Below, piece after piece: positions 3 to 19,521 of a DNA stretch of 20,000 nucleotides. Every line of letters begins with the position of its first letter. Positions within the stretch are counted from its first letter, which is position 1. Source of the DNA: an uncultured virus (IMG/VR IMGVR_UViG_3300012012_001842) (Duplodnaviria; Heunggongvirae; Uroviricota; Caudoviricetes); IMG/VR virus record IMGVR_UViG_3300012012_001842; one strand, 5' to 3'. Below the pieces are notes generated by a model that ran no database searches, was not told the origin of the DNA, and worked only from the letters and a program-made list of their open reading frames with translations. Made by a program: the position numbers and the translations under genes.

Positions 3-248
3 TTCAGCGGCGCTGTTTACGCTTCGCGAATTTCGGCTGCGGTGTCGCCGTACCTGCCAGCCGGAGCTGAGTTGCTGCGAGTCAGGCTGTCCGGCATTGT
101 CTTTCGACCGGACGGCTCAAAAACGCTGTTTCGTGACCGGGAGGTTCTGGCAGCTCCGAACGAACCAGCCAAGATGACGACGTCCAAAACTGTGGCCTTC
201 TTCCTCGATCCATCCGACGTGTCTGTGAACATCATCTCCAATGGCTGA
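3..248 (+). CDS. C-terminal part of a 5'-truncated protein, possibly baseplate J-like
   Basis: Frame is open from position 3 (FSGAVYASRISAAVSPYLPAGAELLRVRLSGIVFRPDG...AFFLDPSDVSVNIISNG*) and its stop overlaps the next ATG. Function is inferred from position only. Confidence 0.55.
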   Translation, partial: FSGAVYASRISAAVSPYLPAGAELLRVRLSGIVFRPDGSKTLFRDREVLAAPNEPAKMTTSKTVAFFLDPSDVSVNIISNG

Positions 249-1713
249 TCGCATCGACGACTCGCAGGCAATCTCCACTCTACCTGGCTCGTTTTGGACA
301 GAAACGTACGCAGGTCACAGCCAGGTTACGTCCATTTGCGACGCAGTCGCGGAGGCAGGGCGACAGTCCTTGGTGACCGCCGAAGAGCTGGCAGCCTCGA
401 CTGGTCGCGAGAGTGCCTTGCCCTACCGGAGGACAACGTGGCACCCTCTGACGCTGAAACTTTCCGAATTGAACGCCAGCCGCGCCGCGTTGCTTCGATT
501 CGGAGACGGGGCTGTGCTCGGGCCGCAGTCGGACGGTTCCCGGTACTACTTCGGTGTCAGCAGGCAGACGTACTACACGTTTCCAACGCCGACAAACCTG
601 AAACGATTCTCCTACGCCGCTACACGAATCTCCTCGCCCGGCCGCGTGTGGCTCGTTGGTGTGGACGTGCTATTCGATCACGAGCGATCCTTGCTGCTGT
701 TTCTCGACAATCCTCTGGACGAGCCGACAGCGGCTGTCAGCTCCGTGTTTCACAATTCTGACCTGTCGGACGCTTCTCTGACTCTGTGGTTGGCTGATGC
801 CGAATTCGATCACGGCGACGTCTACGAGCAGCACGGGTTTGTGTTTGGCATGCCACCACAGCAGGACAGCGCGTGGCAGCAGCCTGGGTTGATCGCGCTG
901 GCTGACAACGTCGTGGGCGGTACCAATCTGTCTGACTTCATGGCTTTGTTGTCAGCCGGAACCGGAGTACCGCTGACGACCGAAGCCGAGGTCGTGGAAC
1001 ACATCGTTGAAGACCGTCACGGCGTCGCTGTGGTTACAGACAAAAACTGCCATCGGTTGCCGGCCGGTTCGGCTTCGACGGTTGCTGTTGGTGACACGCT
1101 GCTGGCCGGTACGTTTGTTGGGAGTGGCGTACGTGTCGCCACGTTCCAGAACGGGATTGTCCCAGCCTGGCTGAATGCGATCGCGATAGGCCGGGGACTT
1201 TTAGACAGGTCAATCGCCGGCGAATTTCTGCTGCAAAACGCCGACGTTCCGTTCATCACACAAACTACGTCCGGCTCGCCTGTTTCCCGGTTCGAGATCG
1301 GCGGACTTCCTGCGGAATCCGCCGCCTTCTTTAGAGAAGTACACACCCGCCTGGCGGCGAATGAGTCGTCGCTGTTCGACGTCGTCGGAAATTGGCAAGG
1401 TGAGGACTATCCAACGATCATCAACCCGTTGGCGTTTTTCGCCGACCAGTGGTTTCGCTGCTCGCTGGTTGTCGTACATTTGACTCAGGCGTCGCTGCGG
1501 TCGAAGGGTGTGTCGCATTTACGGCTGCTGCCTCGCGTGTTTCCTCCGCACCTGCTCTTGCTGGTGGTAATAGACTTACGCCCGCCGGTGTCCGACTTTA
1601 TACTGCCGCAGACGGCTTCGATCGGTGGTTTTTCCGCCGCTGTCAAACAAACGGCCTCCGGTACTGCGGGCGAGATCGTCTCCAGCCGTCGGTACGTGAC
1701 CAACTGCGCCTGA
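241..1713 (+). CDS. Hypothetical 490-aa protein, putative baseplate wedge/structural protein
   Basis: Long ORF coupled to the upstream gene, with LPGSFWTETY near the N-terminus and a V-x-VGD-x-L-x-x-G beta-hairpin motif (TVAVGDTLLAGT). Lies just upstream of fibre-like genes. Confidence 0.55.
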   Translation: MADRIDDSQAISTLPGSFWTETYAGHSQVTSICDAVAEAGRQSLVTAEELAASTGRESALPYRRTTWHPLTLKLSELNASRAALLRFGDGAVLGPQSDGSRYYFGVSRQTYYTFPTPTNLKRFSYAATRISSPGRVWLVGVDVLFDHERSLLLFLDNPLDEPTAAVSSVFHNSDLSDASLTLWLADAEFDHGDVYEQHGFVFGMPPQQDSAWQQPGLIALADNVVGGTNLSDFMALLSAGTGVPLTTEAEVVEHIVEDRHGVAVVTDKNCHRLPAGSASTVAVGDTLLAGTFVGSGVRVATFQNGIVPAWLNAIAIGRGLLDRSIAGEFLLQNADVPFITQTTSGSPVSRFEIGGLPAESAAFFREVHTRLAANESSLFDVVGNWQGEDYPTIINPLAFFADQWFRCSLVVVHLTQASLRSKGVSHLRLLPRVFPPHLLLLVVIDLRPPVSDFILPQTASIGGFSAAVKQTASGTAGEIVSSRRYVTNCA

Positions 1714-1729
1714 ACACGGATGTAAACGC

Positions 1730-2260
1730 ATGTCTGCGACACTGCTGGCCTCTTGGGGATACGCCGCCGCCAAAGCCCTCGGGGATGGCGGGCTGCAGTG
1801 GCGCGCTCGCAAGGTCTACATCGAGTTCGAGAACGTGGTCAGTCCATCTAATCCGGTATCCGTGCCGGCGGTGGCGGCTTTGGACGAGACACACGGAGCG
1901 GCGTACTACGCCGGTCTGTCCAGCTCCGCCACGCGAGACTTCCTTCGAGTCGACTTGCTGGCTGCCCCTTTACTGGGTGTCGCTGCCGGCTACGAAGGCT
2001 ACTTCCCCGAGGGACACGGCAACGTGTTGCGGCTGTTTGCACAAACGGCCGGCATCGTCGGATTCCACGGACGCACATTCTCCGACACAGCCAACAGTAA
2101 AGTCTGTGGCGTGGCGCTGGTCGTAGCCCCGGCTGAGCTGGACCAGACACAGGATGTTGTCATCATGCGGTCCTACTACAGCACCGGCGAGCAGATTCTG
2201 AAGCTGCCTAACTCGCAGATCGGCGTCTCACTCGAAATTCCGTTCATTCTGCCGGACTGA
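1730..2260 (+). CDS. Hypothetical 176-aa protein, putative tail collar/fibre-attachment protein
   Basis: ATG start; fills the gap between 1713 and 2279; beta-rich composition. Function is inferred from context. Confidence 0.55.
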   Translation: MSATLLASWGYAAAKALGDGGLQWRARKVYIEFENVVSPSNPVSVPAVAALDETHGAAYYAGLSSSATRDFLRVDLLAAPLLGVAAGYEGYFPEGHGNVLRLFAQTAGIVGFHGRTFSDTANSKVCGVALVVAPAELDQTQDVVIMRSYYSTGEQILKLPNSQIGVSLEIPFILPD

Positions 2261-2278: not shown

Positions 2279-4063
2279 ATGGCGGGTTGGCTGGAACGAA
2301 TTCAACACCTGATCGACGGCGAGCCGGTGGACGCTGGCGCGACGGGGCGTCCAGATCGTCAACTCGATCAGAACCTGCAGCATCTAAAAGATCTGCTGGA
2401 ACTGTCGTTGGTTGGACAAGCCCTGGTAGCCCGAGACGTGACAGTGTCGCCGGACGTACTGCTTGGCCAGCCTGTATTCTGGAACGCCACAAGCGATCGC
2501 GCGGAGCGGGCGTTGGCCAAGGTTGAATACGACACTGAGCTTGGTACGCTCGTCGCAGCGGCTGAGGCGGAAGTGCTGGGCGTGGTGTTGTCCAAGTCTG
2601 GCTCGACGTTGGCGGACATCGTCATCGTAGGTTGGGTGGACCTGGACATCTCCAACGCAGTGACTGGCGACACAGAGTCTGGACGCTATTACCTGTCCGG
2701 CAGCAATCCAGGACATTTGACTCGGTCGAGACCGTCTCTGTCTGTGCCTGTTCTGTTTGCGGACGGGCACGGAAAAGCGCTCGTATTGCCGATCGCCCGC
2801 AACTGGATGGAAGATCACGGACACTTCCGTTTTGGTTTGGTCTGCGCTCCAGCAGGCGACCACACGCCTCCGTCGAGCGGCAACCCGCACACGATTACCG
2901 ACGCGGACGCTGATCTCGCCGGCTGGTTGCCAGCCGCACACGCCAGCTTCAACGGAAACGCTCCAGCAGGGGCTAGGTTTGGCTACAACATACCCGCGCA
3001 TCCAGCCTTGTCTCGCGTTTGGCCTCCGCTGCCGGAGTCGTCCGCCTCGTTGACGTGGGACCGCGGCCAGAACCAAGTCGGTGGCACGGAAGTCCCCCTC
3101 GGCGAGCACGGCCAAGCGGTGATCGACAAACACGGCATCTGGTGGATGACCAACTGTTACAGCGACGTTCCATGGCCTACCGACTTCACGTTCGCTGACG
3201 GTGAAGACTCGGAGATTATCGATCCACCCAGCACTTGCCCGCGACCGGAAATCATGCGGCTGAGCCTGAACTTCTCCCGGACGCTTTTCGACGCTGCCAG
3301 AACCGTCGTGACCAGCCTGGTTGCCAAGCCTGGCGGAATTGTGCGCGTCTACGGCTGCGACGGGCTGGTGGCAAGCACCGGAGATTTGACAGTTGACGCG
3401 TTGTTGTCACTGTCCATTCTGAACAACGACGAGCCGGGCTTTCTGGTGATCAAGGGCATCGACGAGGACAGCAAATTTCTACGCGGTCCGGTGGTTGAGG
3501 GCGTCGTAGTCGCCGGTACCGGCCTCGTGGCCACATCAACTGGCTCGGAGGTCGTTCTCGGCACCACTGTACACCGTGGAAGAATTTCTCTCACCGCGGC
3601 GCTCACGCCTGCGGACAAGGAACTCGCGCCTACGGTTGTGCGTCTCAGCGACGCCAAGGAACGATTTGAGAACGAGATTCCCTACGTCGGCTTTCCGTCT
3701 GGTTACATGTCGTCCGTGCGGGTGAGTTTCAACGTGCCTCCGGACGGCGTGGCTGTCGATTCCCCGCTCACGTTCAATCTCGTGGTCCTCGGCACACAGG
3801 CTGGTCAGCTGCCAAACCTAGAAGTGTCGTACCGCGTCATTCCGGCGGCCTCTGGCACCCCTCAAACCGTGCCTGCGACGGACACAGCACTCACGCCTCC
3901 GGCCACGACGCCGCTCGTCTCGGCCAATCAGTACCTGGCAATCGCGATGCCGTCAATTGAAGTCAATCCAGGTGACACTGTGTTGCTGGATGTCGGCCGC
4001 GGGAGTGACGGTTACGGCGGAGAAATCGGTTTGATCCGTGTCTCCGCAGTGTTGGGGGGCTAA
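2279..4063 (+). CDS. Putative tail fibre/baseplate-anchored protein (594 aa)
   Basis: The N-terminus IQHLIDGEPVDAGATGRPDRQLDQNLQHLKDLLE resembles the phage fibre-anchor motif (DGEPV...NRP..QL..N..YLK). It is followed by a GQPVFW...LGVVL...GRYYLS...PGHLT domain common in virion proteins. GGAAGGGA lies upstream as a possible RBS. Confidence 0.7.
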   Translation: MAGWLERIQHLIDGEPVDAGATGRPDRQLDQNLQHLKDLLELSLVGQALVARDVTVSPDVLLGQPVFWNATSDRAERALAKVEYDTELGTLVAAAEAEVLGVVLSKSGSTLADIVIVGWVDLDISNAVTGDTESGRYYLSGSNPGHLTRSRPSLSVPVLFADGHGKALVLPIARNWMEDHGHFRFGLVCAPAGDHTPPSSGNPHTITDADADLAGWLPAAHASFNGNAPAGARFGYNIPAHPALSRVWPPLPESSASLTWDRGQNQVGGTEVPLGEHGQAVIDKHGIWWMTNCYSDVPWPTDFTFADGEDSEIIDPPSTCPRPEIMRLSLNFSRTLFDAARTVVTSLVAKPGGIVRVYGCDGLVASTGDLTVDALLSLSILNNDEPGFLVIKGIDEDSKFLRGPVVEGVVVAGTGLVATSTGSEVVLGTTVHRGRISLTAALTPADKELAPTVVRLSDAKERFENEIPYVGFPSGYMSSVRVSFNVPPDGVAVDSPLTFNLVVLGTQAGQLPNLEVSYRVIPAASGTPQTVPATDTALTPPATTPLVSANQYLAIAMPSIEVNPGDTVLLDVGRGSDGYGGEIGLIRVSAVLGG

Positions 4064-4065
4064 GC

Positions 4066-5868
4066 GTGCCCGCATTTTTTAACTCCGAATGGCTCAACAG
4101 CAACAGCCAGCGCAGCTACCCGTTTGCCGAGCACGCGACAAAGACAGACGTCACGTCGTCGATCGTCATGCCGGACAGTTTCCTGGTGGAGCTGTACATG
4201 CCGGTGTCTGCCGTGTTCGACACGCTGCCAGACAAGTTCTACGTCCATTCCATCGCAATCATCGGCGCTGGGTACGTGCTGAACATAGGCTACGACGACG
4301 GCACCAGCGAGCCGACAATAATCGCCGTGACCAGCATCGCCCGTACGAACTTTCACGAGAACGGACGCTACGCTCTGGTCGGCACCGGCGACTTCGACGA
4401 CACCGTCGGAAAAGTGGTCATTGGACGGCTGCAGGAGATCGAACGTCTGCCTGCCGGCATCTACACGTTCACTCCAGCGGGCGGAGCTATCGATCCGGAC
4501 TGCATTCGACCGATGATTCGCGGAGTCAGCTCGATCGCTGTTGACCTTAACGGCGTGCGAGGTCCTCGTCTGCGTGACAGGGTGATCCTGTCGGCTGGGA
4601 ACGGCATACGTCTGTCCACCATCACCGGACCAGGCATCGACTCCAGGATTCGCATCGACGCCATCCCAGGCAGCCTCGAAGAGGCGTGTCTGTGCGACGA
4701 ACCTCAACCGCCTTGCATCCGTACCATCAACGGGATCCCTGGAGACTCGAACCAGAACTTCACACTGACCGGAGACAACTGTCTGGTCATTACGCCATCC
4801 GGCAACGGGCTGCGTCTGGAAGACAAGTGCTGCAAGCCATGCTGCGGCTGTGATGAGCTGAACGAAGTGCTGCGAGCTTTGCGCGGCACGCAGTCCAGTC
4901 TGCACACGGTCGAGAACTTCACCAGTCGGTTGGCTGGTGAGGTGCAGGAGATGGAACTGACCGTTCTCAGCAGTCGACTGAACGACACCGGCTGCGGCGG
5001 TGGCGGTGGCGGCGGCGGTGGAGGTGGAACAGCTCCAACGATCACCATCACCGCAGCTCCGTCGAGCGTCGCGTCAGGGGCCAGCGCCACATTAACCTGG
5101 AGTTCCACCAACGCTACCACAGTCACAATTGACGGATCTTCAGTGGCGTTGTCCGGGTCGATGTCAGTCTCGCCCGGCGGCACGCATACTTACACAGCTG
5201 CGGCTGTCGGCGTAGGCGGCACCGCCTCCGCTTCGGCCACTGTGACAGTGACAGGCTCCGGCGGACCGCCAACGATCAACCTCACAGTCAGTCCGGCCAA
5301 TGTGCTCGCCGGAGGCTCTGCCACGCTAAGCTGGAGTTCCACCAACGCCGTCGCAGTCACAATTGATGGAACTTCAGCAGCGTTGTCCGGGTCTCGGGCT
5401 ATCACCGCTCCTGTAACATCTGGTCAACGGGCGATGCTTCAGTTTACCCACACGGCCCTGGCTACTAAGCCAGGCGCTACTAGCGGCAGCGATTCGGTAA
5501 TTTTGCACGTAGCTCCTGTGCCTGTGGGTGCTATGCGGGTTACCTTCAGTATCAGCGGAACTGCCGGCAGCTTCTCTATGTCATGGAATGCCGCCGAACG
5601 ACAGTGGCGATCGTACGCCACTTCCGGCGTGGCAACCAGCCGAGCGCTGACTGCGCAACTGGCCGGGGTTAGCTCAGGACCGGCTGCCGGTGCTACTTTG
5701 GTCATCTCCAGCCCGATCAACGGCCCTGTGGCTTGGTACAACTCCAGTTCAGGTGCGACAGACATCTCTGAAGGTGTGTGCGGGTCACTCTCACTCGGCA
5801 AGAACGTCAGCATGTCATCCATATACGGGCAGACTTACTCCAACGTGGCGACCGGGGCCTGCCTGTAA
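4066..5868 (+). CDS. Cys-rich virion-type protein, paralogue 1, with poly-Gly linker and two Ig-like repeats (600 aa)
   Basis: GTG start; motifs WLNSNSQRSYPF, CIRTINGIPGD and CCKPCCGC, then a predicted coiled coil, G11 linker and two PTI...G-x-SATL-x-WSSTNA repeats. Confidence 0.8.
   Translation: MPAFFNSEWLNSNSQRSYPFAEHATKTDVTSSIVMPDSFLVELYMPVSAVFDTLPDKFYVHSIAIIGAGYVLNIGYDDGTSEPTIIAVTSIARTNFHENGRYALVGTGDFDDTVGKVVIGRLQEIERLPAGIYTFTPAGGAIDPDCIRPMIRGVSSIAVDLNGVRGPRLRDRVILSAGNGIRLSTITGPGIDSRIRIDAIPGSLEEACLCDEPQPPCIRTINGIPGDSNQNFTLTGDNCLVITPSGNGLRLEDKCCKPCCGCDELNEVLRALRGTQSSLHTVENFTSRLAGEVQEMELTVLSSRLNDTGCGGGGGGGGGGGTAPTITITAAPSSVASGASATLTWSSTNATTVTIDGSSVALSGSMSVSPGGTHTYTAAAVGVGGTASASATVTVTGSGGPPTINLTVSPANVLAGGSATLSWSSTNAVAVTIDGTSAALSGSRAITAPVTSGQRAMLQFTHTALATKPGATSGSDSVILHVAPVPVGAMRVTFSISGTAGSFSMSWNAAERQWRSYATSGVATSRALTAQLAGVSSGPAAGATLVISSPINGPVAWYNSSSGATDISEGVCGSLSLGKNVSMSSIYGQTYSNVATGACL
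4996..5028 (+). repeat. GGN codon run encoding an 11-glycine linker
   Basis: ggcggtggcggtggcggcggcggtggaggtgga, directly after ...SSRLNDTGC. Confidence 0.9.
5097..5393 (+). repeat. Intragenic direct repeat: two 63-bp copies (5097-5159 and 5331-5393) in tandem Ig-like domains
   Basis: Manual alignment gives 8 mismatches in 63 bp; the copies are 234 bp (78 codons) apart. Confidence 0.9.
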
Positions 5869-5885
5869 CAATTGCGAGTACGGAC

Positions 5886-7448
5886 ATGCCCACTCTTTTC
5901 AATTCACTGCTGTCGCCTGACGCCGGGCGTGGAACCGGAGTGGAGTTCCACGGCTCGAATTACCCTTTTGTATCGCCCAACAACGGCTCGCGAGGTCTGC
6001 TGGCTGATCTGTGGCTGACGCACGACGACACGACGCTTGTGCCGCCATTCAGAGTGTCTCAAATGCTGCACATGGGTCGACCGCTCGACCTGGAGGCAGC
6101 CGCTCCGCCGGACGAGCACCCGTGCGACCTGGTTATACTGGACGCTACCAACTCCGTCGTCTGTGACACCCGCCTGGCTTCGCGATACGACGGTCGCCGA
6201 TTCGGTAGCCGGTTCTTCGTTCACGAGTGGAGGTTCCCGGACCGAGTCTGCAGCGTCGTGCAGCACGCAGCCCTGGACGATCTGCTGCAAGACGTGTTAC
6301 GCACGACAGACAACGGTGACGGCCAGATCGAGGAAGCCGAGCTGGACGCCTACCTCACAACGTTTGGCAATCCCATCCCGGAGTTGATCATACCGACGTC
6401 CGGTGAGTTGGATGAACGGACACACGAATTACTGGTAGACCGGCTGCTGGAGTTTGAAGTAGACGGAGTGGTCATTTCAGGAAATGTCATCCTGGTGCCG
6501 GGATTCAACATCGTCTTAGGTGGCGACGCCTCGCTGTCGCAGCGAATACCGGCGGGCCTTCCAACAAGTTTGCGTTCGTCGATCGGCTCTACGTTATCGT
6601 TGACAGAGAACGTGGTGTCGATTTCGATCGAGCCTGGCGGCGGTGAAGGGCCTGTTCCTGGCTGCGACGGAGCGGAAGCCGGCCTGCGGTCGATCAACAT
6701 CACCAATCCAACCAACGACGGACGGTTCACGCTCTCCGGAGTGGCCTGCATCGACGTGTCTCCACCGCCATTGGACGGACGTCCGTTGGAGCTGTTGACG
6801 AGCGCATTGAAACTCAGCAACCATTGCGGCGCGTGCTGCGCTTGCACGGACTATGTCGCCACGTACAAGCAGATTCGGCGGGTCTACGACCGTATCAAGG
6901 TGGCGGCGGCACTGGCCGAGGTGGTCCGATACGACTACCACGACTTGCTGGATCGATGGGACACAGAAAAGCTGTGCCGCGAGTCAAAGCCGCTGCGAGT
7001 CGGCTGCTCGGGTGCGAAATTCATCAGGCCGTACCCGGACGCCGATCCTCCTAAGCCGCCTTACGAGGTGACGTACGTCACCATAGCCTGCACCGTGTGC
7101 AACACCACCGACGACTGTCTGTTCGACGTCCAGGTGCGGTTGTCGCACGGCTGGGGCGGCGGCGTCATTCTAAACGGCAGCAATTTCCAAACTTATGACG
7201 ACGGGTCGTCTGACACAGCTGACGTTGGTAGCGGGCCAGTTCATTTCGCCAACTGGGGCCAGATCGCCAAGAACCAGTCCGTGTTTGTACAGTTCACGCT
7301 GATGTGGGAGCCGATCAACACTCCGTCTGGCTCGTTTACGGTTTGTGCCACAGCCACGGCCGCAGGTCAGACGTTGCCGCTGGGCGGGACAGCCTACGAG
7401 ACGTGTGATACGACGACAGTGGCTATCCAAGTACTGGCGGTGTTCTGA
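5886..7448 (+). CDS. Cys-rich virion-type protein, paralogue 2 (520 aa)
   Basis: ATG 5886 is preferred over 5778 because it avoids overlap with the upstream gene and gives an MPTLFNS start like MPAFFNS of paralogue 1. Motifs GSNYPF, LRSINITNPTNDGRFTL and HCGACCAC, then a helical segment and a beta-rich C-terminal domain. Confidence 0.8.
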   Translation: MPTLFNSLLSPDAGRGTGVEFHGSNYPFVSPNNGSRGLLADLWLTHDDTTLVPPFRVSQMLHMGRPLDLEAAAPPDEHPCDLVILDATNSVVCDTRLASRYDGRRFGSRFFVHEWRFPDRVCSVVQHAALDDLLQDVLRTTDNGDGQIEEAELDAYLTTFGNPIPELIIPTSGELDERTHELLVDRLLEFEVDGVVISGNVILVPGFNIVLGGDASLSQRIPAGLPTSLRSSIGSTLSLTENVVSISIEPGGGEGPVPGCDGAEAGLRSINITNPTNDGRFTLSGVACIDVSPPPLDGRPLELLTSALKLSNHCGACCACTDYVATYKQIRRVYDRIKVAAALAEVVRYDYHDLLDRWDTEKLCRESKPLRVGCSGAKFIRPYPDADPPKPPYEVTYVTIACTVCNTTDDCLFDVQVRLSHGWGGGVILNGSNFQTYDDGSSDTADVGSGPVHFANWGQIAKNQSVFVQFTLMWEPINTPSGSFTVCATATAAGQTLPLGGTAYETCDTTTVAIQVLAVF

Positions 7449-9034
7449 TGTCCTACAAGGGCCGAAACTTTCACGATCTGAACTCCGTCCGCGGCTATCC
7501 GCTGGACGATACGGCCACCGGTCTGTCTGACGACGGAGTCAGAATGCCAGACGGCATCCTGGTGGACGCCTGTCTCCGCTTCCCTCGCACGATCGGTCAG
7601 TTTGCCTACCTGATGGCTGTCAATTCTTCGCCGACGCAGGTCAGCTTCGTGATCGGCGTCGCGGACGAGCTCGATGACAGCACCATGCTGCCGATCGCCG
7701 CACTGTCGCTGTCGGCTCCGATACTGTCCGGCAAGCCGTATGAGCTTAAACCGCTGTTGGTTGGAGTTGCCGGCTGGCTGGTATTCGGACCGAACGACGA
7801 GCCGTACGCTGGCAAATTCTCCACGCCGTCGCAAAGCCGTTTGTTGGACAGGGTGGCGAGGCCGTATCAAAGTCTGCCAGTGCCGTGGATCTCGAAGACG
7901 ATGGACGAGCACAAGCTTGTCAGCGAGACACACTTGTTTGGCGGCACGGACATCGAGGTGATAACCGGGCAGAGGTTGATCGAAGGCGTGCTGAAAGACG
8001 CCGTCATCATTCGACTTACTGGCGATCTGCAGGCCAAGCTAGAAGAGTACGCGGGCACGTGCGGCGGGCGTCCAGACAGCCGTACCTGCATTCTGCCTGG
8101 TGTTGAAAGCATCTCCGGGGCGACGCCAGACGCTAATGGCGACATCGAGATCGCGTTCGGAGGTATGCGGGCTTCGTCCATTCCCAACGGAGTGTTGGTC
8201 AGTACGTCCGCGTCACTACCGGAATTGTGCGGTGACCGGCTCGTTTCCGTTGATGAGCCTGTGGACTACTGCAGCTCGATGTCCGAGATCAGCGAGAGCA
8301 CCGGCGTCTCCGACAGCATTAGCGACAGTGTGAGCGATTCTGTCAGTACGTCGGAGTCGTCCAGCGTTGTCGATGTAACCTATCCGAAGTGCGTCCGCTT
8401 CTTTTCGGACGAGACCTCGCCGCTGTCGTTTCCATACGGCGCGTGGGATAAGACCGCAGCCTACCCGCACACGTTTCCGTGCTGGGACGGCGGTCACGAT
8501 GAGCCTACGTGGAGGTCTCAACGGACCAACCACACGCCCCTTGCCGTCGGCAACCCCTGCGGTTCTCAGATCGCCATCTTTAACAATCCTGACTACACTC
8601 AAGCCGTAAACATGTCCGTCGAGACGTCTCTGCGGGTCATCGGCGCAGACGCCATCGCCGGTGTGTTGTTCGGTTATCGCCGGCTGTGGGACCGCAGTTA
8701 CCCAGACGGCTTCGCAGCTGTCATGGATCGCAGCCGCAGCAGTTTCAGCATCGGTTACTGGACGCCTTCTGGGTTCTTGCCACTCGTGTCCTCGAAAAAA
8801 TTGTATTTTGACTCAGGGTACTGGCACAAGATCCAGGCAACCATCACCCAGGACGGCGCGGACATCGTGTTGCAGGCTTCGCTTGGCATAGTTGGCGGCA
8901 ATTCCAGCCGCTCGATTCAGACGCGAATTCAAGGCGGTTGGCGAGATAGCGCCAGTGGTCGTTTCGGGCTGCTGGCCATGGGTCAGACTGCTGAAAACTC
9001 AATGTTTGCCTACCTCCGCATGGATCTAATCTGA
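7448..9034 (+). CDS. Virion-type protein, paralogue 3, with Ser-rich linker and C-terminal ConA-like (DUF1080/LamG-type) beta-sandwich (528 aa)
   Basis: TGATG coupling to the upstream gene; motifs FHDLNSVRGYPL and VESISGATPDANGDIEI; linker SSMSEISESTGVSDSISDSVSDSVSTSESSS; C-terminal AGVLFGY...WHKIQATI...GRFGL...FAYLRM pattern. Confidence 0.8.
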   Translation: MSYKGRNFHDLNSVRGYPLDDTATGLSDDGVRMPDGILVDACLRFPRTIGQFAYLMAVNSSPTQVSFVIGVADELDDSTMLPIAALSLSAPILSGKPYELKPLLVGVAGWLVFGPNDEPYAGKFSTPSQSRLLDRVARPYQSLPVPWISKTMDEHKLVSETHLFGGTDIEVITGQRLIEGVLKDAVIIRLTGDLQAKLEEYAGTCGGRPDSRTCILPGVESISGATPDANGDIEIAFGGMRASSIPNGVLVSTSASLPELCGDRLVSVDEPVDYCSSMSEISESTGVSDSISDSVSDSVSTSESSSVVDVTYPKCVRFFSDETSPLSFPYGAWDKTAAYPHTFPCWDGGHDEPTWRSQRTNHTPLAVGNPCGSQIAIFNNPDYTQAVNMSVETSLRVIGADAIAGVLFGYRRLWDRSYPDGFAAVMDRSRSSFSIGYWTPSGFLPLVSSKKLYFDSGYWHKIQATITQDGADIVLQASLGIVGGNSSRSIQTRIQGGWRDSASGRFGLLAMGQTAENSMFAYLRMDLI

Positions 9035-9035
9035 C

Positions 9036-9779
9036 GTGGCCAGAATAGTTCACCCGCAGTTTCGTGATGAGAACGCGTACTCTAAGTACCCGTTCACGGA
9101 CCTGTCGTCGCTCGTGTCGGACACAGGCGAGGAGCTACCTCGCGACGCACTGATCGACGCCGTGCTGCATCCGGTAGGACTGTCGCAGTCACTGGTCTTG
9201 CTGAGTGTGACCATCGACGGTTTGACAGCTTCATTTTCTATTGGGTGGGATTCTGAAGAGCTGTGCTCTGGGTCGATTTACCTGTCGGGGCAAAACGGAG
9301 CCACTGCGATGGCGGACGGTCTTGGGAGGCCCGCCGGCGTGTTGCTGTTCAATCCAGGCACGATCGCCACAATTCAGGGCTGGCAGAACGGAGTCCACAG
9401 TTTCGGGCGTGCCGCCACGTTCGTTCCTACCGTCGTCATACCGTCTCCGGAAGTTGCCGTGCGAGGTCTCGGCGCTGAGTCCGATGTGCCTCTCGTCAAC
9501 GATGTCTGGATCGTTGGGGAGGACGGTGTGTTGGTGACAGACGACAACGGCGACATCCGTATCGACATCGTGGGTGATCCTCTCTGGCGTCGCGCGGTTT
9601 GCGATCGACAACCTGACTTCCAAAGTCCAAACTTTGCGTTGACAATCAACGGGACTCCTCCAGATGACTACGGTAATTGGAGGCTTGTAACCGGCCGCGA
9701 GTTGACGACGAAGCCGGCGTTACGCGTCCGTCCGGAAAATGGCGTTTTGATCATTGAACTCGCGTTACCTGGAGGCTGA
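9036..9779 (+). CDS. Virion-type protein, paralogue 4 (247 aa, core domain only)
   Basis: GTG start 1 nt after the upstream TGA; motifs FRDENAYSKYPF, IRIDIVG and ALTINGTPPDDYGNWRL. Confidence 0.8.
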   Translation: MARIVHPQFRDENAYSKYPFTDLSSLVSDTGEELPRDALIDAVLHPVGLSQSLVLLSVTIDGLTASFSIGWDSEELCSGSIYLSGQNGATAMADGLGRPAGVLLFNPGTIATIQGWQNGVHSFGRAATFVPTVVIPSPEVAVRGLGAESDVPLVNDVWIVGEDGVLVTDDNGDIRIDIVGDPLWRRAVCDRQPDFQSPNFALTINGTPPDDYGNWRLVTGRELTTKPALRVRPENGVLIIELALPGG

Positions 9780-9780
9780 C

Positions 9781-10698
9781 TTGCCACGCACTAGCTTCCA
9801 CGACGACAACCGACATCGCCGATACCCATTTGTCAGCACGCCCGAAATCGAGGCGGCTGCCGCAGACGATCAGATTCCGGACAGTCTGCTGCTGGACGTT
9901 GGTTTCACAATGGCGGCCTACTCCGGCTTCGATCCCGAGGTGCATGAGGTCTGGCTAGAGGAAATCTACGCGTCCGGAGGTGCTTTGGTTCTGGTCTTTC
10001 AAACTGACTGTAACGCGGTGGCGTCCGATAACCCGCTCGTGTTTCAGCTGCAGCCGGATACCAGTGAATCGCAAGTGGCGTTCACTGAGTCGTCAGGCGT
10101 GACCATGGAATGCTCCAGCGCACAACTCATCTGGTACGGATTTGTCGCAGTCGGCAGCGTGTCAAAAACACTGACCTGGTTAGGTACGCACAGCGGCGAG
10201 CTGAACCGCTTGCAGCACACGGTAGAGCCGTCGCTGGTGCAGAACATCGACAAGACCTACGTGCGGTCAGCCAGCCTGGCTAACAGACAGCGCACGCGCG
10301 TGACAGACATCCCCGGCGTGACTCGGCCGTACATCGTCAACTCCAAAGGCATCCAAGGACCGCTCCGGTTCAAAGAAGGCAAAAACGTCACGATCAGTTA
10401 CGACCTCAATCGTAACGGCCTGACCATCTCCGCGGCGGTCGGCTCCGGTGAAGGCAAGGTCTGCGAGGAGCTGCCGCAGTTCGATGGCGAGGTGTCGCCC
10501 GACGGCGGCGAGTTGCTCAGCGGTGGACCTGCGTGCAGGCAGGTCGTCAAAACCCTAAACGGCATCTCCGGTTCGCGGATCACATTGCAGGGCGGTTCTG
10601 GCATTCTCATCGAACGCGCCTCGGATGACGAACACAAGTTAATCATCCGCGTTGATGACGGGTCCGTCGCCCCCTGCAGCACCGGGGGTTTAGCATGA
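9781..10698 (+). CDS. Virion-type protein, paralogue 5 (305 aa, core domain only)
   Basis: TTG start at 9781 with GGAGG at 9771-9775, preferred over 9754; motifs [24 protein letters not shown] and [13 protein letters not shown]. Confidence 0.78.
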
Positions 10699-11444
10699 CG
10701 AACGCATTCAATCCGGCCAACTGCGTTGTGGAAGACGTAGAGCGGATCGACAACTTCAAACTCATCGTAGACTGCGTGATTCGCGAGTCCCCGCCGCCGA
10801 TTCATGGCTGCGCTGACCTGCAGTTCTGGCCTCCGCTACCAGGAGCTCCGGGTCCGATCGGACCTCAAGGACCTCAAGGACCTCAAGGACCTCAAGGACC
10901 TCAAGGACCTCAAGGACCTCAAGGACCTCAAGGACCTCAAGGACCTCAAGGACCTCAGGGTCCTCGCGGAGTTCCTGGACCGCCAGGTCCGGATGGCGAT
11001 GACGGCCCTCAGGGTCCTCCTGGTGACAAGTACGCCATCGTTCCCACGTCTCAAGGGGCTGTAGGTCTGGTGTGCGTGGAAAGTCCTGAGGTCTGGTTTG
11101 ACGATGTCATCTCTGCCGCTGTGTGTGGTGAGTCGACGTACATCATGCTCGACCCGTTGTTCTGCGAGACAGTGGAACCGGGTTCGATTCGTGTCACCAG
11201 CCTGACCCCGTCCAGCCCGGCCATGTGCGGCGCCCGCGTCGAGCCTAGAAGTCCGGAACGGCATCTGTCGATGGTGGTGGTGGAGTGCTCAGCTCCGGTG
11301 GGTCGTTATCCTCTGCCGGCCTCGGTCACCGTCTGTGTTCGCGGAATACGTCGCGGTCGAGGCGGTGTGAGATTCCGCAAGTTTGACAACGAACAAATGA
11401 GGCGAAACGATGAGTTTTGGCGTTCAGCCTACGAGTGGAACTGA
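10695..11444 (+). CDS. Collagen-like short fibre protein (249 aa)
   Basis: 21 uninterrupted Gly-X-Y triplets (10842-11030). The C-terminal domain ESPEVWFDD...[10 protein letters not shown]...LTP...VRGIRRG...RF resembles C-terminal domains of phage tail proteins. Confidence 0.85.
10860..10958 (+). repeat. Perfect 9-bp tandem repeat (GGACCTCAA)x10 plus one GGACCTCAG, encoding (GPQ)11
   Basis: Read directly from the sequence. Confidence 0.97.
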
Positions 11445-13281
11445 AAACCTGCTTATCCGGTTGGCAAACGCGCCTGGCGATACGATCGTGCTGACAGCCG
11501 CTGTGCGGGATTTGGCGTTGCAGTATCCAGACAGGTTCTCCGTATCCGTCGATACGCACGCCAACTCCGTGTGGCATGGTAATCCGCACGTTGTGCCGGT
11601 TGGCCCGTCGCCACGAGTGCTGCAGCTGAAGTACGGCGGGCAGATGCGTCGCGCACACGGCGGCGTTCGCATGCACTTCCTACAGGCGTTTCACAACCTG
11701 CTCAATGAAGAACTCGGCACAGACATCAAAATGACTGAGCCGAAGCCGGATCTCCACCTGACGCCGGAAGACGTTCTCGACCTCGGAAAAAACTCCCTCG
11801 GAAAATACTGGGTGTTATTTCCAGGCTGGAAATCCGACATGCCAACCAAGGCTTGGCTGCCGTCTCGTTGGCAGACTGTGGTGGATGTGCTGGACAACTG
11901 GGGGGTGTCGTGCGTGCAGGTCGGCGCCACTTCCAAAGGGCACCACAACCCGACGTTGTTGGGGGTTACAAATCTGGTCGGCAAGACGAAGCTGAGGCAA
12001 CTGTTTCGTTTGATCGCGGACAGTGAGGGCGTCATTTGTGGAGTCACCTCCGGAATGCACATCGCCGCCGCATTCGATAAGCCGTGCGTGTCGATCGCTG
12101 GCGGACGTGAGGCGTGGTGGTGGGAGGCGTACGTCAACCAGAACACCGGTTTCGGCGCGGCGAATGGTCGCGTGGTTGTTCCGCACCGGTTCCTGCACAC
12201 GCAGGGGTTACTGACCTGCTGCGAACGCTCGGGCTGTTGTCGTCGAAAGACGAACTCAAGCCAAACTGACAATCAGCGGGACGTCTGTCTGCAGATGCAA
12301 GATTTTCAAGGTAGCGGCCTGCCGGCGTGCATGGGTCGCATCGAACCGGAGGATGTCGTGGACGGGGTTCTTTCGTACTATCTGGACCGAACGCTGGTCC
12401 CGCATTCATCGGAGCTGAAGAAGTTGACAGCCACACTCCCCGATACGCTGCCGGCAGTCGGCGATCCGTTGACAATCCTGGGCCAGGACGGACGCACCGT
12501 GCGCATCAGCTTTGGACCTCGCCAGGCTGAGTCTGCAGAGCAGCGGCGTCCGGAAGACACGGACGTGTCGGTGTTTCAAGATCCCAACATTGGTGATCGC
12601 GTCACCATCTGCCTGCTGATGTACGGTGACTTTGCCGAACTGCACAAGCGGTGTCTGAACGCCGTGCTGGCGACGACTCCGAAAGATCGCGTGGAGCTTC
12701 GCGTGGGCGGCAACCAGCTGTGCCGTGAAACGGACACGTACCTGAGAAAACTGCACGAGTCTGGCGACATAGCCCACCTGAACATCTCGTCAGTCAACAG
12801 ACGCAAGTATCCGGTAATGCGTGATCTGTTTCGTGAACCGCCGCTCACGACGAACTGGGTCATCTGGCTGGACGACGACACACTCTGCGACACAGACAGC
12901 GGCTGGCTGGTCAAAATGCTGGGCGTCGCCTCTGCGAATTTTGACAGAAACTGTCGATGGGTTGGTCCGCACTACAAGTACCGGATGAACGACTCGTGGC
13001 GCGAGTGGTGCGCGCAGGGCGGTTGGTACCGAAGCCTGCCGTGGCCCGAGGACAACAAGATAGGTTTCGCCACCGGCTCGCTGTGGATGGCCCACGTTCC
13101 GACGCTGCTCGCAGCTGACGTACCAGACTGCCGTCTAGGTCACAACAAAGGCGACGTGACTGTCGGCTGTCAGTTTCACCAGGCTGGAGTGAAACTTTGC
13201 AATTTCAGCGCAAAGAAAGAAACCGTAAACTGGAGCTCGTCCGCCCGACGCGGCATCACCGACAGGCACCCGGCGGAGTAG
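11410..13281 (+). CDS. Two-domain glycosyltransferase: N-terminal GT9 (heptosyltransferase RfaF/WaaF-like) fused to a C-terminal GT2-like domain (623 aa)
   Basis: GT9 motifs [21 protein letters not shown]...[27 protein letters not shown] and [13 protein letters not shown]-type features [15 protein letters not shown] and WVIWLDDDT (DxD at 12871-12879). Confidence 0.85.
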
Positions 13282-13285
13282 GAAA

Positions 13286-13882
13286 TTGAAAACTGTCACA
13301 TTGAGCAGACAAACAGCGGCTGCCGATCACCACCGTCGATTGATAATCGAAGTTGGTAGCGTCGTGGACATCGATCGAAACGTGTTCCTCTATCGCCAAC
13401 TGCCAATGCGAGCTGGAGACACGGAGCCAACAGGTCGATTCGAGGGCGTCTGCAGTCCGAACGACATGGCCGACCATCCTGTCGGTTCGCCTACTCTGGG
13501 TGCCAGCCCACCGTGGTTCCGCTTGGACACAGTTGACCTGCTGCTGCGCTCCGAGGCGGAGTTGCAGAGTGCGTGGATGATCATCCTGGAGGAAGTTCAG
13601 TCGCTGGTGGACGCGCTGAACATCTTGGAGGAGACAACCGCGACCCAGGTCTTCACCATCAGCAACTCTGGCGGTTTGACTGAGGGCTGCGGACTGTCAA
13701 TCTTCTTGCAGTCCACTCCGTCGGAGACATGGGTGATCCAGCACAACCTGGGTCGGTACGTAGAGTTCTCCCTCCACGATTTGAGTGGCAATCGACTCGA
13801 TGCCAATTACAATCAAGGTCTGAACACACTGACCGTTATGTTCGACGGAAACACAGTATCCGGATTCGTTCTGTTCTCCTGA
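13286..13882 (+). CDS. Hypothetical protein with C-terminal phage fibre-type HNLG domain (198 aa)
   Basis: TTG start after GGAG; C-terminal QSTPSETWVIQHNLGRY...D..G...NTLTVMF...SG pattern typical of small phage virion beta-domains. Confidence 0.7.
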   Translation: MKTVTLSRQTAAADHHRRLIIEVGSVVDIDRNVFLYRQLPMRAGDTEPTGRFEGVCSPNDMADHPVGSPTLGASPPWFRLDTVDLLLRSEAELQSAWMIILEEVQSLVDALNILEETTATQVFTISNSGGLTEGCGLSIFLQSTPSETWVIQHNLGRYVEFSLHDLSGNRLDANYNQGLNTLTVMFDGNTVSGFVLFS

Positions 13883-14292: not shown

Positions 14293-14586
14293 ATGTCTCT
14301 GATGACCATCGACAACGCCGCCATCGACGCGATGCGGGCGGCTCCGGAGCTGCTGCGGTACCTGCCTTGTCTGGGATCGCCGCTGACGGCGTCCGTCAGG
14401 TCGCGTACCTGCTGCGACGGAGGCGGCAGCAACGGTCTGGACTACAACGCCATCAAGCTTTGCATCTCCGGGTTGGACTCAGTCAACACGCAGCGTGTGA
14501 AGGATTTCTTCAACGCGACACAGATTCGCGTCTACAGGGCCAGCACAAGAAACGGATCGCCGATCACGATCAAACACACAAAGTGA
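14293..14586 (+). CDS. Hypothetical protein (97 aa)
   Basis: ATG 1 nt after the upstream stop, with AGGA upstream; last gene before an AT-richer intergenic region. Confidence 0.65.
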   Translation: MSLMTIDNAAIDAMRAAPELLRYLPCLGSPLTASVRSRTCCDGGGSNGLDYNAIKLCISGLDSVNTQRVKDFFNATQIRVYRASTRNGSPITIKHTK

Positions 14587-17001: not shown

Positions 17002-18717
17002 ATGACTGACCTGGCAACGCAGACGAGACAGTATTTGGCGGCCGGGTACCAGAGTTTGGTGGTGGACACCAGCGAAATCGCCAGGTGTGAGGACGAAATC
17101 ATCGGCCTGTGCGCGTCAGGCTCTGTGGATATGGTGCTGTCCTGGGACTGCGTAGGCGGGTTGATTGTCAGGGCTGTCAGCGACGATTGCCCCGACTACA
17201 AGAATGACATCGGCAAGCGGATCACTTCGTCCAAGTCCGGCGCTGGACAGCCAACCATCGCCGACCCCCTGCAGGCGATCAAGCTCCTACTCAACGATCT
17301 GCCGGTCGAGAACGCTGTCATCATCATGCACAACCTGCACTTGTTCCTGAAGAAGGACGTTGAGGTTGGGCAGCTGTGGCAGACGTCCGTGAACTCCAGG
17401 CAGTTCAACGGGCTGTACACGGACGCAACGACTGGCGAAGCCCGTCCGATTTGCCGCGTACCGATCATCGTCGGCACCGGCGTAGACATCCCAGCGTCCC
17501 TGAAGCCTACCGTAACCCACATGACGTTCTCACTGCCGGACCTGAACGACATGCGAAAGCTTCGCGTCGAGGTGCAGCAGGCTGTCGAGGATGATCGTGC
17601 TAGGTTGGAACTTAGTCCTGACCCGGCTACTGCAGCGCTGGCTGAAAGGATCAGCCGCAGCCTGCTCGGCATGACCCGCGTCGAGGCTACGGGCGTACTG
17701 TCGTTGTGCGGCGTGCTCTACAAGTCGCTGGGGAACCCGGACGTACTGAACACGATCGAAAGCGAGAAGGCGGCGATTCTGAAGAAGAACACCGCCTTGG
17801 CCTACATCAGCCGAGACGCCATTTCCAAGTTACCTCGCGTCGGCGGCTTCTCCGAGTTCAAGAGATGGCTCAAGCGTCGCTGCCTGTGCTATACGCAGGC
17901 GGCGGACGACCTGCGGATCGACAAACCCAAGGGAGTGATCCTGCTGGGAGTTCCCGGCAGCGGCAAGAGTGCCGTGGCCAAGGAGTCAGCGGAGATTCTC
18001 GGGCTGCCTCTCGTGTCGCTGAACGTCGGTGCGTTGTTCGGTTCGCTGGTGGGTAGCAGCGAGGCCCAGACGGATGACACCATCCGCACGATCGAGAGTC
18101 TGAACGGTTGCGTGCTGCTGATCGACGAGGCCGACAAGGCGTGGCAGGGGTCGTCCGGCACGGCCACTGACTCAGGTGTGGCTCAGCGCGTGTTCGGTAA
18201 GTTCCTGACCTGGTTGGCCGAGAAGAAGGACAACACGTTCGTCATCATGACGATGAACCGTATCGACGGCATACCCTCAGAGCTTCTCAGACGCGGTCGC
18301 TTTGATGAGTTGTTCTACACCACGCTGCCCAACAGCGACGAGCGCGAGGAGATCATCCGACTGCACATGAGGCACCGCAACGTCGATCCTGACGCTGTGC
18401 TCAAGTCGGCAGCGGACTGGAAGCGGCTGCTCACTGTCACGGACGAGTTCGTCGGGGCGGAGTTGGAGCAGATGGTTGTCGAGAGTCGGTTGGTAGCCTT
18501 CTCGAATCGCTGTACCGGTGAGCCCACACTGGATGAGCTCGTCGCCGTGGCGAAGACCGTCGTCAAGCTGGTGACATTGGACCGGGAAAATCTGGACCGT
18601 ATCATGACCTTCTGCAAAGAGCGTGCGAGGCCAGTCAATGATGACATCGCCGCAACCGCAACCAAGGCGCCGCGAGCGCACCGCGTATCTGTCAGTGGAA
18701 ATCCCAACAACAACTGA
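17002..18717 (+). CDS. AAA+ ATPase, Ycf46-like (degenerate N-terminal AAA-like region plus an intact C-terminal AAA domain), 571 aa
   Basis: Walker A GVPGSGKS (17947-17970), pore loop LFGSLVGSSE, Walker B VLLIDEADK and second region of homology TMNRIDGIPSELLRRGRFDELFY. The IESEKAAILKK..L...VGG..EFKRWL segment and the C-terminal FCKERARP are typical of Ycf46-like proteins. Confidence 0.92.
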   Translation: MTDLATQTRQYLAAGYQSLVVDTSEIARCEDEIIGLCASGSVDMVLSWDCVGGLIVRAVSDDCPDYKNDIGKRITSSKSGAGQPTIADPLQAIKLLLNDLPVENAVIIMHNLHLFLKKDVEVGQLWQTSVNSRQFNGLYTDATTGEARPICRVPIIVGTGVDIPASLKPTVTHMTFSLPDLNDMRKLRVEVQQAVEDDRARLELSPDPATAALAERISRSLLGMTRVEATGVLSLCGVLYKSLGNPDVLNTIESEKAAILKKNTALAYISRDAISKLPRVGGFSEFKRWLKRRCLCYTQAADDLRIDKPKGVILLGVPGSGKSAVAKESAEILGLPLVSLNVGALFGSLVGSSEAQTDDTIRTIESLNGCVLLIDEADKAWQGSSGTATDSGVAQRVFGKFLTWLAEKKDNTFVIMTMNRIDGIPSELLRRGRFDELFYTTLPNSDEREEIIRLHMRHRNVDPDAVLKSAADWKRLLTVTDEFVGAELEQMVVESRLVAFSNRCTGEPTLDELVAVAKTVVKLVTLDRENLDRIMTFCKERARPVNDDIAATATKAPRAHRVSVSGNPNNN

Positions 18718-18729
18718 AGGAGTCGAACC

Positions 18730-19137
18730 TTGTCACACATCAACACCTACACGTCCCAGTTCAAAGACGAGAGCATTGTTCGTCGCGCCTGCCAGTTTCT
18801 GGACCTTCCAGCGCCGGTTCGCGGTACGTTCAGGCTCTACAACACGCCGGTCACCGGACTTGGCGTCCAGCTGCGAGGCTGGCGGTTCCCGCTGGTGATC
18901 AACACCGACACCGGCGACACCAAGTACGACAATTACGGCGGCAGCTGGGGCGACGCCAAGGAGCTGGATGCCTTCAAACAGCGATACCCGCTGGAGGCAG
19001 CCAAGCAAGCTGCTGAAGCGAAGAACATGCAGTACCGCGAGGTTGTGCTGGATGACGGGGCAATCGCCCTGGACGTGGTTCTGGTTGGAGGCGGCGGCGG
19101 TTCCGGAGGCGGGAGAAGTCCAATTGGCTTCGACTGA
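18730..19137 (+). CDS. DUF1257 (Ycf35-like) family protein, 135 aa
   Basis: TTG start after AAGGAG; MSHINTYTSQFKD...RAC, GVQLRGWRFP, YDNYGGSWG...LDAFKQRY...A...DGAIAL pattern; sits next to a Ycf46-like ATPase as expected. Confidence 0.8.
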   Translation: MSHINTYTSQFKDESIVRRACQFLDLPAPVRGTFRLYNTPVTGLGVQLRGWRFPLVINTDTGDTKYDNYGGSWGDAKELDAFKQRYPLEAAKQAAEAKNMQYREVVLDDGAIALDVVLVGGGGGSGGGRSPIGFD

Positions 19138-19321
19138 TCTCGACCCGGCCAGGTACGACGCACATCGTCAGGCAGAGTCTGACGCAACTACCGCGGCGGA
19201 GGTTGAACTCAACACCTCTGCCAAACGGCGCAAGGTGAGCGAGGCCGCCCTGTCGCAGACTGTCAAAGATCTCGCGGATACTGAACAGGAAATTGCAGAC
19301 ACACTGGAGAGCAGGCCATGA
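19124..19321 (+). CDS. Small charged helical protein (65 aa)
   Basis: TTG 19124 with GGGAG at 19111-19115, in the frame of track ORF 18968-19321. It fills the gap between DUF1257 and DUF2997 and ends in an ATGA overlap. Confidence 0.5.
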   Translation: MASTDLDPARYDAHRQAESDATTAAEVELNTSAKRRKVSEAALSQTVKDLADTEQEIADTLESRP

Positions 19322-19521
19322 GTCAGGGAAAAGAGCAGATCGCGCGCATCATTGCAGACAAGCACGGTAACGTCTCGATGGAGACGAAAGGTTTCCAGGG
19401 GTCGAGCTGCGCAGGGGCGGCTGAGTTCCTCTCCCAAGCCCTCGGCACAGTCGAAACTACGCAGAAAACGGCTGAGTTCTACGGCGAACAGAGGGATGTT
19501 GATCAGGTCGTGGCGCAGTGA
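19318..19521 (+). CDS. DUF2997 family protein, 67 aa
   Basis: I..DKHGNVSMETKGFQGSSC...AEFLSQALG.V....KTAEFY matches the DUF2997 pattern; usual neighbour of DUF1257 and Ycf46. Confidence 0.85.
   Translation: MSQGKEQIARIIADKHGNVSMETKGFQGSSCAGAAEFLSQALGTVETTQKTAEFYGEQRDVDQVVAQ

Follow-up and report, generated by a model that had tools for sequence, protein, structure and literature searches.

Five tandem paralogues next to the baseplate genes of a large uncultured phage: a conserved cassette and its probable assembly into one mixed pedestal

Introduction

Which structure is encoded by five consecutive genes lying close to the baseplate genes of an uncultured phage, when their products resemble one another only faintly? 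The question is raised by a window of 20,000 nucleotides (nt) from the IMG/VR record IMGVR_UViG_3300012012_001842, which represents the end of a 72-kb contig. The genes, designated here A to E, are five consecutive open reading frames on the + strand, from position 4066 to 10698. The original prediction, made from the letters alone, regarded their products as a hetero-oligomeric or branched fibre/baseplate platform built from one fold and displaying several adhesins. The A-E cassette is real, conserved and uncatalogued, and its products are probably assembled, as far as can be judged from sequence, into one mixed, cysteine-cross-linked hetero-oligomeric pedestal at the baseplate rim. The five genes and their parts are the following (lengths in amino acids, aa):

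4066-5868, + strand: A, 600 aa
4066..4998, + strand: A core, with an N-terminal beta domain, a beta-repeat shaft, a CxxxCCxC knot and a coiled coil of ~45 residues
4999..5868, + strand: A extension, with a poly-Gly linker, two Ig-like repeats (aa 323-486) and a terminal domain
5886..7448, + strand: B, 520 aa from ATG, with a divergent N-domain, a shaft, a CxxCCxC knot, a coiled coil and a beta tip
7448..9034, + strand: C, 528 aa, with a core, a Ser-rich linker (~8273-8371) and a ConA-like tip (8375-9031)
9036..9779, + strand: D, 247 aa, core only
9781 or 9754 to 10698, + strand: E, ~305-314 aa, a core with loop insertions, ending just past C308

One fold in five genes

The kinship of the five genes is faint at the level of single sequences (best pair C-D, blastp E ~1e-5), while the two features proposed for all of them, a related N-terminal motif and a second strand motif, are indeed present throughout, each with an upstream Cys. 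Relatives were collected, one alignment was built per gene, and all pairs were compared profile against profile with hhalign. The proposal of five diverged paralogues was borne out by this all-against-all alignment, with 10/10 A-E pairs significant (probability 87-99.7%, E 4e-6 to 3e-25) vs 0/35 control pairs with five neighbouring genes (at most 0.84% probability), and the scores altered little when one mislabelled B row was taken out of the A alignment. With the whole B family as input, the N-terminal domain of B could not be aligned to the other four (probability 0.3-15%); an alignment was obtained via 18 B orthologues of divergent sequence (92-94%, E 2-5e-7; at most 0.14% in three controls), and the predicted strand order of the domain resembles that of D. 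By the measure of their profiles, A-E are true, ancient paralogues of one fold, with a common core consisting of an N-terminal beta domain of ~130 aa followed by a region of beta repeats, poorly modelled as a monomer, that contains a Cys knuckle. An internal duplication of two shaft repeats reached a best probability of 54% and is suggestive at most. The gene directly before A (termed 'pre'), the gene after E (termed F) and other neighbours were considered as a sixth paralogue and rejected, there being no profile similarity to A-E.

Only A and B extend past the core via a CC-x-C knot and a helix of ~45 aa; a long helix is absent from the D model and single in the B model, and the coil of A is read from its sequence. 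The knot of A includes C262 (codon at 4849-4851) and its coiled coil ends at C310, the spacing from the knot to the end Cys being 48-49 aa in 97/112 pairs. The corresponding residue of B is C326 (codon at 6837-6839, numbering from 5862), with the beta tip at 6981-7445, and E carries C308 (codon at 10675-10677, numbering from 9754). As a pair, the coils of A and B have an almost constant length, with the combination 48/44 in 81/112 pairs.

The five genes had not been recognised as a named family, and no library (Pfam, PHROG, PDB, cultured phages) names the A-E core. Thus, none of A-E matched in the Pfam search; the sole PHROGs match of A-E was that of the A extension to phrog_2155 (E 2.5e-12), with 0/58 A cores matched; the PDB profile search gave nothing for D and, for the A core, only weak matches of the coiled-coil type, taken as noise; and tblastn of A and D vs 50,697 phage records found no match. 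Models of B (predicted local distance difference test score 78, helix 319-363) and D (confident for residues 10-135, of low confidence past 140, with no long helix) gave no Foldseek match at E <=0.001. VIA gave a best Z of 4.8 for the D N-domain, to generic C2-like sandwiches, and of 6.1 for B, by helix only, and ESM Atlas returned for D uncharacterised clusters only, all <0.9. Such nulls do not establish that the core fold is new.

A fixed cassette in a phage clade

The conserved array that was searched for in phage and metagenome data was found, with ABCDE in 109 distinct loci, each of which holds exactly five members in all. The order ABCDE was present in 74/74 first-round loci holding all five genes (60 of them distinct; the 74 include duplicates and the window, and one gene was relabelled B by hand) and in 41/44 and 8/9 further distinct loci, the remaining four being cut by contig ends. 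Unrelated genes are occasionally inserted between the members. No sixth copy and no member loss was seen across the loci; these had been retrieved with A, C or D as the query, and an array without them would have escaped. One locus, L126, proved to be spurious and contains no member of the family. At 50% identity the A family comprises 483 clusters with E <=1e-30 and 2161 at 0.001, and many of the relatives' contigs are ~200 kb. Five genome-contig matches are read as binned phage contigs rather than cellular genes, because they occur in genomes of unrelated taxa and all have the full phage context.

By its gene content the source is a large contractile-tail phage, since the contig codes for a tail sheath, for RNA polymerase beta and beta-prime regions, and for a capsid protein and wedge-type genes related to those of Salmonella phage Arash, which is a myovirus with gp13 and gp14 in its virion proteome (PMC10585845 Table 2). 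The capsid protein is ~26% identical to that of Arash, and the large RNA polymerase subunit ~31% identical to those of the nearest cultured phages (Arash; Vibrio phages D69/D148/D181). The wedge-type genes are related to Arash gp12-14 and to Vibrio phage D69, in which the relatedness of the sheath and protease was also checked. The A-E array begins three genes past a baseplate-J-like gene. A search of the complete Arash and D69 records, run without a positive control, gave neither A nor D, and the tested tail regions of the two phages gave no 'pre', B, C or E.

Cysteines that change together

Gain and loss of optional cysteines were scored on a tree of 124 loci from which cysteines had been masked, giving 78 variable sites and 1888 inter-protein pairs; the results are written as shared changes of the changes at site 1/site 2. 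A positive control within one protein, E120-E199, gave 13 shared of 17/15. The five top inter-protein pairs had an overlap of 0.5-0.83 vs a 99th percentile of 0.17, and the p values below are approximate Bonferroni values (binomial, weighted by each branch's change tendency):

C246-D207: 12 shared of 14/15, p 3e-5
B326-E308: 5 shared of 5/6, p 0.0015
A262-E308: 4 shared of 4/5, p 0.008
A262-B326: 4 shared of 4/5, p 0.017
B57-D171, automatic calls: 4 shared of 7/5, p 0.25

The C246-D207 pair is concordant in 116/123 loci and, by independent pairs, changed in the same sense in 9.0 and in the opposite sense in 0.5 of 11 (p ~0.02). Region-based calls, which drop seven cut or misaligned rows kept by the automatic calls (L007, L108 and L113 for E308; L200 for B; L121, L207 and L292 for the E loop), raised B57-D171 to 7 shared of 10/11 (pairs p ~0.03). 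The A/B/E triple was lost together in L001, L002, L028 and L106, and the B/E pair in L067, where A falls outside the contig; the window retains A262, B326 and E308 though nested with L001/L002, and it lacks both partners of C246-D207, B57-D171 and the C229-E loop pair. Off-block pairs share at most 3 changes and the matrix is block-specific, therefore no general drift in cysteine content is at work. The co-changing cysteines likely link all five proteins into one hetero-oligomer.

Several other candidates were tried and rejected. The pairs C309-D133, A326-B413 and pre159-A217 were not significant. An apparently perfect set, C244-pre165-I324-I375-B515, was also set aside: C244-pre165 is one clade and one change, and the others occur in the same loci. 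As a separate observation, a single event in one clade (L005, L007, L010, L011, L013, L017, L020, L032, L047, L055, L088, L121) brought new cysteines to C, B, 'pre' and the wedge protein, which hints at cross-linking between cassette and wedge.

How the five chains may assemble

In the proposed pedestal the N-domains would cluster and the beta-repeat shafts, modelled with low confidence, would wind together, with C and D ending first, A, B and E meeting at the Cys knot, and A and B going on as a coiled coil. The co-changing cysteines would touch, as disulfides that would form by oxidation after lysis, and the A/B/E triple may bind a metal as a Cys3 site on a pseudo-axis, or else form two disulfides together with another copy of A. 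The beta tip of B and the ConA-like tip of C would be fixed, low-copy glycan-contact domains. Going by gene order, the complex may hang from the wedge via 'pre' and hold F by its Cys/Pro N-terminal peptide, and host-range change would then occur mostly in F and sometimes by domains added to the free C-terminus of A, as in this genome.

The links are compatible with two geometries: the chains may form a ring in the order A-B-D-C-E, or a trimer of ABE may be cross-linked to one of C/D. The ring order is suggested because the deduced links A-B, B-D, D-C, C-E and E-A close it, with B-E as a single chord. A closed 1:1:1:1:1 hetero-pentamer of this order, in which a five-stranded beta shaft of different chains would taper to the three-chain A/B/E knot and then to the two-chain A/B coiled coil, is put forward tentatively, as a possible and doubtful form of the pedestal; a literature search, covering few subscription papers, found no five-chain fibre base on a six-fold baseplate.

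A number of points weigh against one mixed pedestal. No cultured phage with A-E genes was found, the location in the virion is a predicted one, and binding of F or 'pre' to A-E is putative, the pre159-A217 pair being not significant. The A/B/E triple amounts to 4-5 events, too few for a sign test (p 0.125-0.25); most of the later loci were retrieved by a pattern that includes A C262, so that they add cases of retention but no further loss; and in L210 A262 and B326 are present and the E tail Cys is missing. The C229-E loop pair is weak (region-based calls, 3 shared of 7/9; sign test p 0.25). The C246-D207 pair was found on the pooled set, with no hold-out, and nine third-round loci were uninformative. 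Mutual information over all residues with average-product correction (MI-APC) is dominated by phylogeny, A-B being densest and A-C rivalling C-D. Finally, co-change points to likely proximity, and such cysteines could also cross-link neighbouring separate oligomers.

Separate homotrimers, exchangeable adhesins and other sites

The last point leads to the most durable alternative, which we hold to be unlikely, namely five separate homotrimers (short fibres or spikes) standing side by side on a hub, with the cysteines cross-linking adjacent homotrimers as in Agrobacterium phage Milano. A beta-repeat shaft followed by a coiled coil is typical of homotrimeric fibres, and the partners in the B57-D171 and C229-E loop pairs lie at chain positions that are not in register with each other. 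However, A262, B326 and E308 lie at equal chain height and are lost as a triple, C246 and D207 belong to the same repeat, D and E are tipless, and the jointly fixed coil lengths of A and B are also at odds with independent trimers. In particular, D as a stand-alone receptor-binding trimer makes little sense because it has no tip. In the precedent, the Milano tailspike and short fibre are homotrimers tied by disulfides to the baseplate, inter-chain disulfides hold the tail parts together, and the paralogues gp125/gp127 make up a garland at the periphery (PMC10811340). The likeness to A-E would lie in inter-chain links between tail proteins, contact being supported here by co-change and the disulfide being presumed; unlike A-E, the spike and fibre are homotrimeric and the garland paralogues are reported to be without cysteines.

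The mixed pedestal must also be set against the reading of the original prediction, in which a common N-terminal dock of a branched receptor-binding system carries exchangeable host-range adhesins. Three of the five genes had been said to carry unrelated extensions and two to end with the core, and this division holds in the window, where A has an Ig-like tail, B a beta tip and C a ConA-like tip, D and E being tipless. With an extension defined as at least 60 aa past the core, and one row reassigned to B before counting, orthologues were extended in 77/77 cases for B, 83/88 for C, 0/112 for D and 3/92 for E; A was extended in 1/64 first-round orthologues, the window's own, and 6/150 database representatives of A carry various long extensions. 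The two Ig-like repeats of A are 62% identical to each other over 45 aa; the terminal domain recurs in the nearest relative, P0033 (E 6e-7), which lacks them. The Ig-like tail of A is a lineage-specific addition, its repeats being an insertion not present in the nearest relative. The B tips fall mostly in one BLAST cluster (65/78), as do the C tips (70/83), and the window tips match the respective family profiles (E 5e-13 for B, E 7e-22 for C); on profile grounds the B tip and the C tip are one conserved family each. For the B tip there was no Pfam or PDB match. The C tip was placed by ESM Atlas at 0.96 to PF06439/PF21708/PF25849 clusters, 9/10 in one clan, with weak support from Pfam and PDB (PF13385, E 0.012 in 1/32 C tips; levanase, E 0.19).

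Exchangeable adhesins are thus favoured by the presence of C-terminal domains in 3/5 genes here, one of them ConA-like and one Ig-like, by the faster divergence of tips than of cores (median identity 21-23% vs 32-43%), and by the unrelated extensions that A sometimes gains. However, the tips of B and C stay each within a single family, D and E are almost never extended, and the copy number never varies, so that this reading is already largely refuted by tip conservation and is regarded as very improbable. The display of several adhesins is the part of the original prediction that was not supported as worded, the B and C tips being conserved, D tipless, the A tail lineage-specific and F variable, whereas its hetero-oligomeric baseplate module gains from the baseplate position, the one fold family and the cysteine co-change. 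A neck, collar or capsid-vertex appendage is hardly credible: a contact graph that can close as a ring of five would suit a five-fold vertex, and nearby small genes match head-decoration PHROGs, but the cassette directly follows the baseplate wedge genes in nearly all loci reaching them and is far from the capsid gene.

Comparison with known systems

The branched tailspikes of the CBA120/G7C type have members each with its own exchangeable receptor or enzyme domain, and their copy number varies; the A-E cassette differs in having no exchangeable domain per member and a fixed copy number. The closest analogue of the mixed pedestal in its working would be the gp131/133/134/135 complex of phage phiKZ, whose fibre base was modelled as a hetero-hexamer of gp131 x3 + gp133 + gp134 + gp135 (PMC13250141). 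As described there, tandem paralogues beside the baseplate genes share an N-terminal domain, differ in their C-termini, and are modelled as a hetero-oligomer anchoring fibres at the baseplate rim of a jumbo phage, the likeness on the present side being one of genes only. Homology to the phiKZ proteins was undetected (hmmsearch E >=0.03; hhalign at most 0.5%, with a four-sequence phiKZ profile of limited sensitivity), and the fold searches with the D model had no phiKZ chain among the matches listed (best Z 4.8). The phiKZ base is moreover a six-helix bundle, whereas here the long helix occurs only in A and B and the shaft is of beta repeats and presumably cysteine-linked. A mixed-chain fibre is also known from the virophage DSLV2, with tripartite heterotrimeric tail proteins from consecutive conserved genes (PMC12724248); compared by description, its three chains are, unlike A-E, T4 gp37-like and receptor-binding. 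A literature search on phage tail parts that are heteropentameric or made of paralogues, covering few subscription papers, gave only PMC13250141 as relevant.

The interest of the cassette lies in its being a large structural family, as yet uncatalogued, which is the mark of a widespread clade of uncultured phages and was not found in the closest cultured ones. Fibre bases of mixed paralogues were modelled only recently, in phiKZ, and a second, unrelated case would suggest a recurrent trend in jumbo phages, with homo-oligomeric fibres converted time and again into asymmetric pedestals. The co-changing cysteines supply named residue pairs, by which the subunit order and stoichiometry become testable without culturing the phage.

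Genes around the cassette

The neighbouring genes of the window, of which the wedge-type gene, the small gene, 'pre' and F are not paralogues of A-E, are the following:

ending at 248: baseplate-J-like gene, upstream neighbour of the wedge-type gene
241..1713, + strand: baseplate wedge-type protein (Arash gp14, E 2.9e-25; Vibrio phage D69 gp15)
1730..2260, + strand: conserved small protein of 176 aa, which travels with the cassette
2279..4063, + strand: 'pre', a conserved protein of ~600 aa, directly 5' of A
10695..11444, + strand: F, with a conserved Cys/Pro N-terminal peptide of ~45 aa and a hypervariable body, here collagen (PF01391)
11410..13281, + strand: GT9-like glycosyltransferase fusion (PF01075, E 1e-14)

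The J-like and gp7/gpI-like labels of the wedge-region genes are ones that we assume from position and the usual architecture of such modules. The 176-aa gene was not found in the tested Arash/D69 tail regions. The gene 'pre' immediately precedes A in nearly all loci extending that far, and it gave no match to A-E by hhalign; its N-terminus is, as we take it, of the fibre type, and the protein is likely a fibre or adaptor linking the wedge to A-E.

F is not homologous to A-E. Its motif lies within 150 nt of the E end in 63/79 distinct loci, as a three-Cys, Pro-rich peptide before collagen or beta-repeat bodies; the length of F is 186-2468 aa and G-X-Y runs are present in 38/63. F is likely a variable fibre, and its N-terminal peptide is a candidate plug-in anchor for variable fibres. 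Inspection by eye of the loci with co-loss showed that the F cysteines do not track the A/B/E triple. Three tandem F copies occur in locus L075.

The GT9-like gene is present in 33/43 distinct loci with at least 6 kb past E, and extra glycosyltransferase-like genes are often near the cassette. Ser-rich linkers stand beside it in C (8273-8371) and also, in many loci, in E, D and 'pre' loops. A phage-encoded glycosylation of the tail is possible. Further downstream, the genes at 13286-13882 and 14293-14586 are conserved in 43 and 36 loci, the product of the former having a C-terminus that varies over 135-817 aa, and at window positions 17002-19521 an AAA ATPase gene precedes a small gene and one for a DUF2997 protein.

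Elsewhere on the contig, many head-region proteins contain repeated K-x-A motifs such as KTAS and KQAA (G000:C1:10340-29800), which we presume, from their pattern, to be possible prohead-protease cleavage sites. The clade resembles the mReC phages, in which RNA polymerase beta and beta-prime regions are encoded and the NADFDG motif is carried (PMC7481178). It shares the former trait, yet it is not filed among them, because the catalytic NADFDG motif is absent and the sole D-x-D-G-D motif in the contig polymerase reads TLDHDGD. This polymerase (G000:C1:11451-18845) is oddly split: a 1477-aa gene comprises beta and the catalytic part of beta-prime with the TLDHDGD motif, and is matched by Arash and D69 over the full length of the large gene, and the remaining beta-prime is a separate 621-aa gene. 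The tail sheath protein has 2022 aa with big N-terminal insertions (G000:C1:35609-41677) vs ~700 aa in phage D69.

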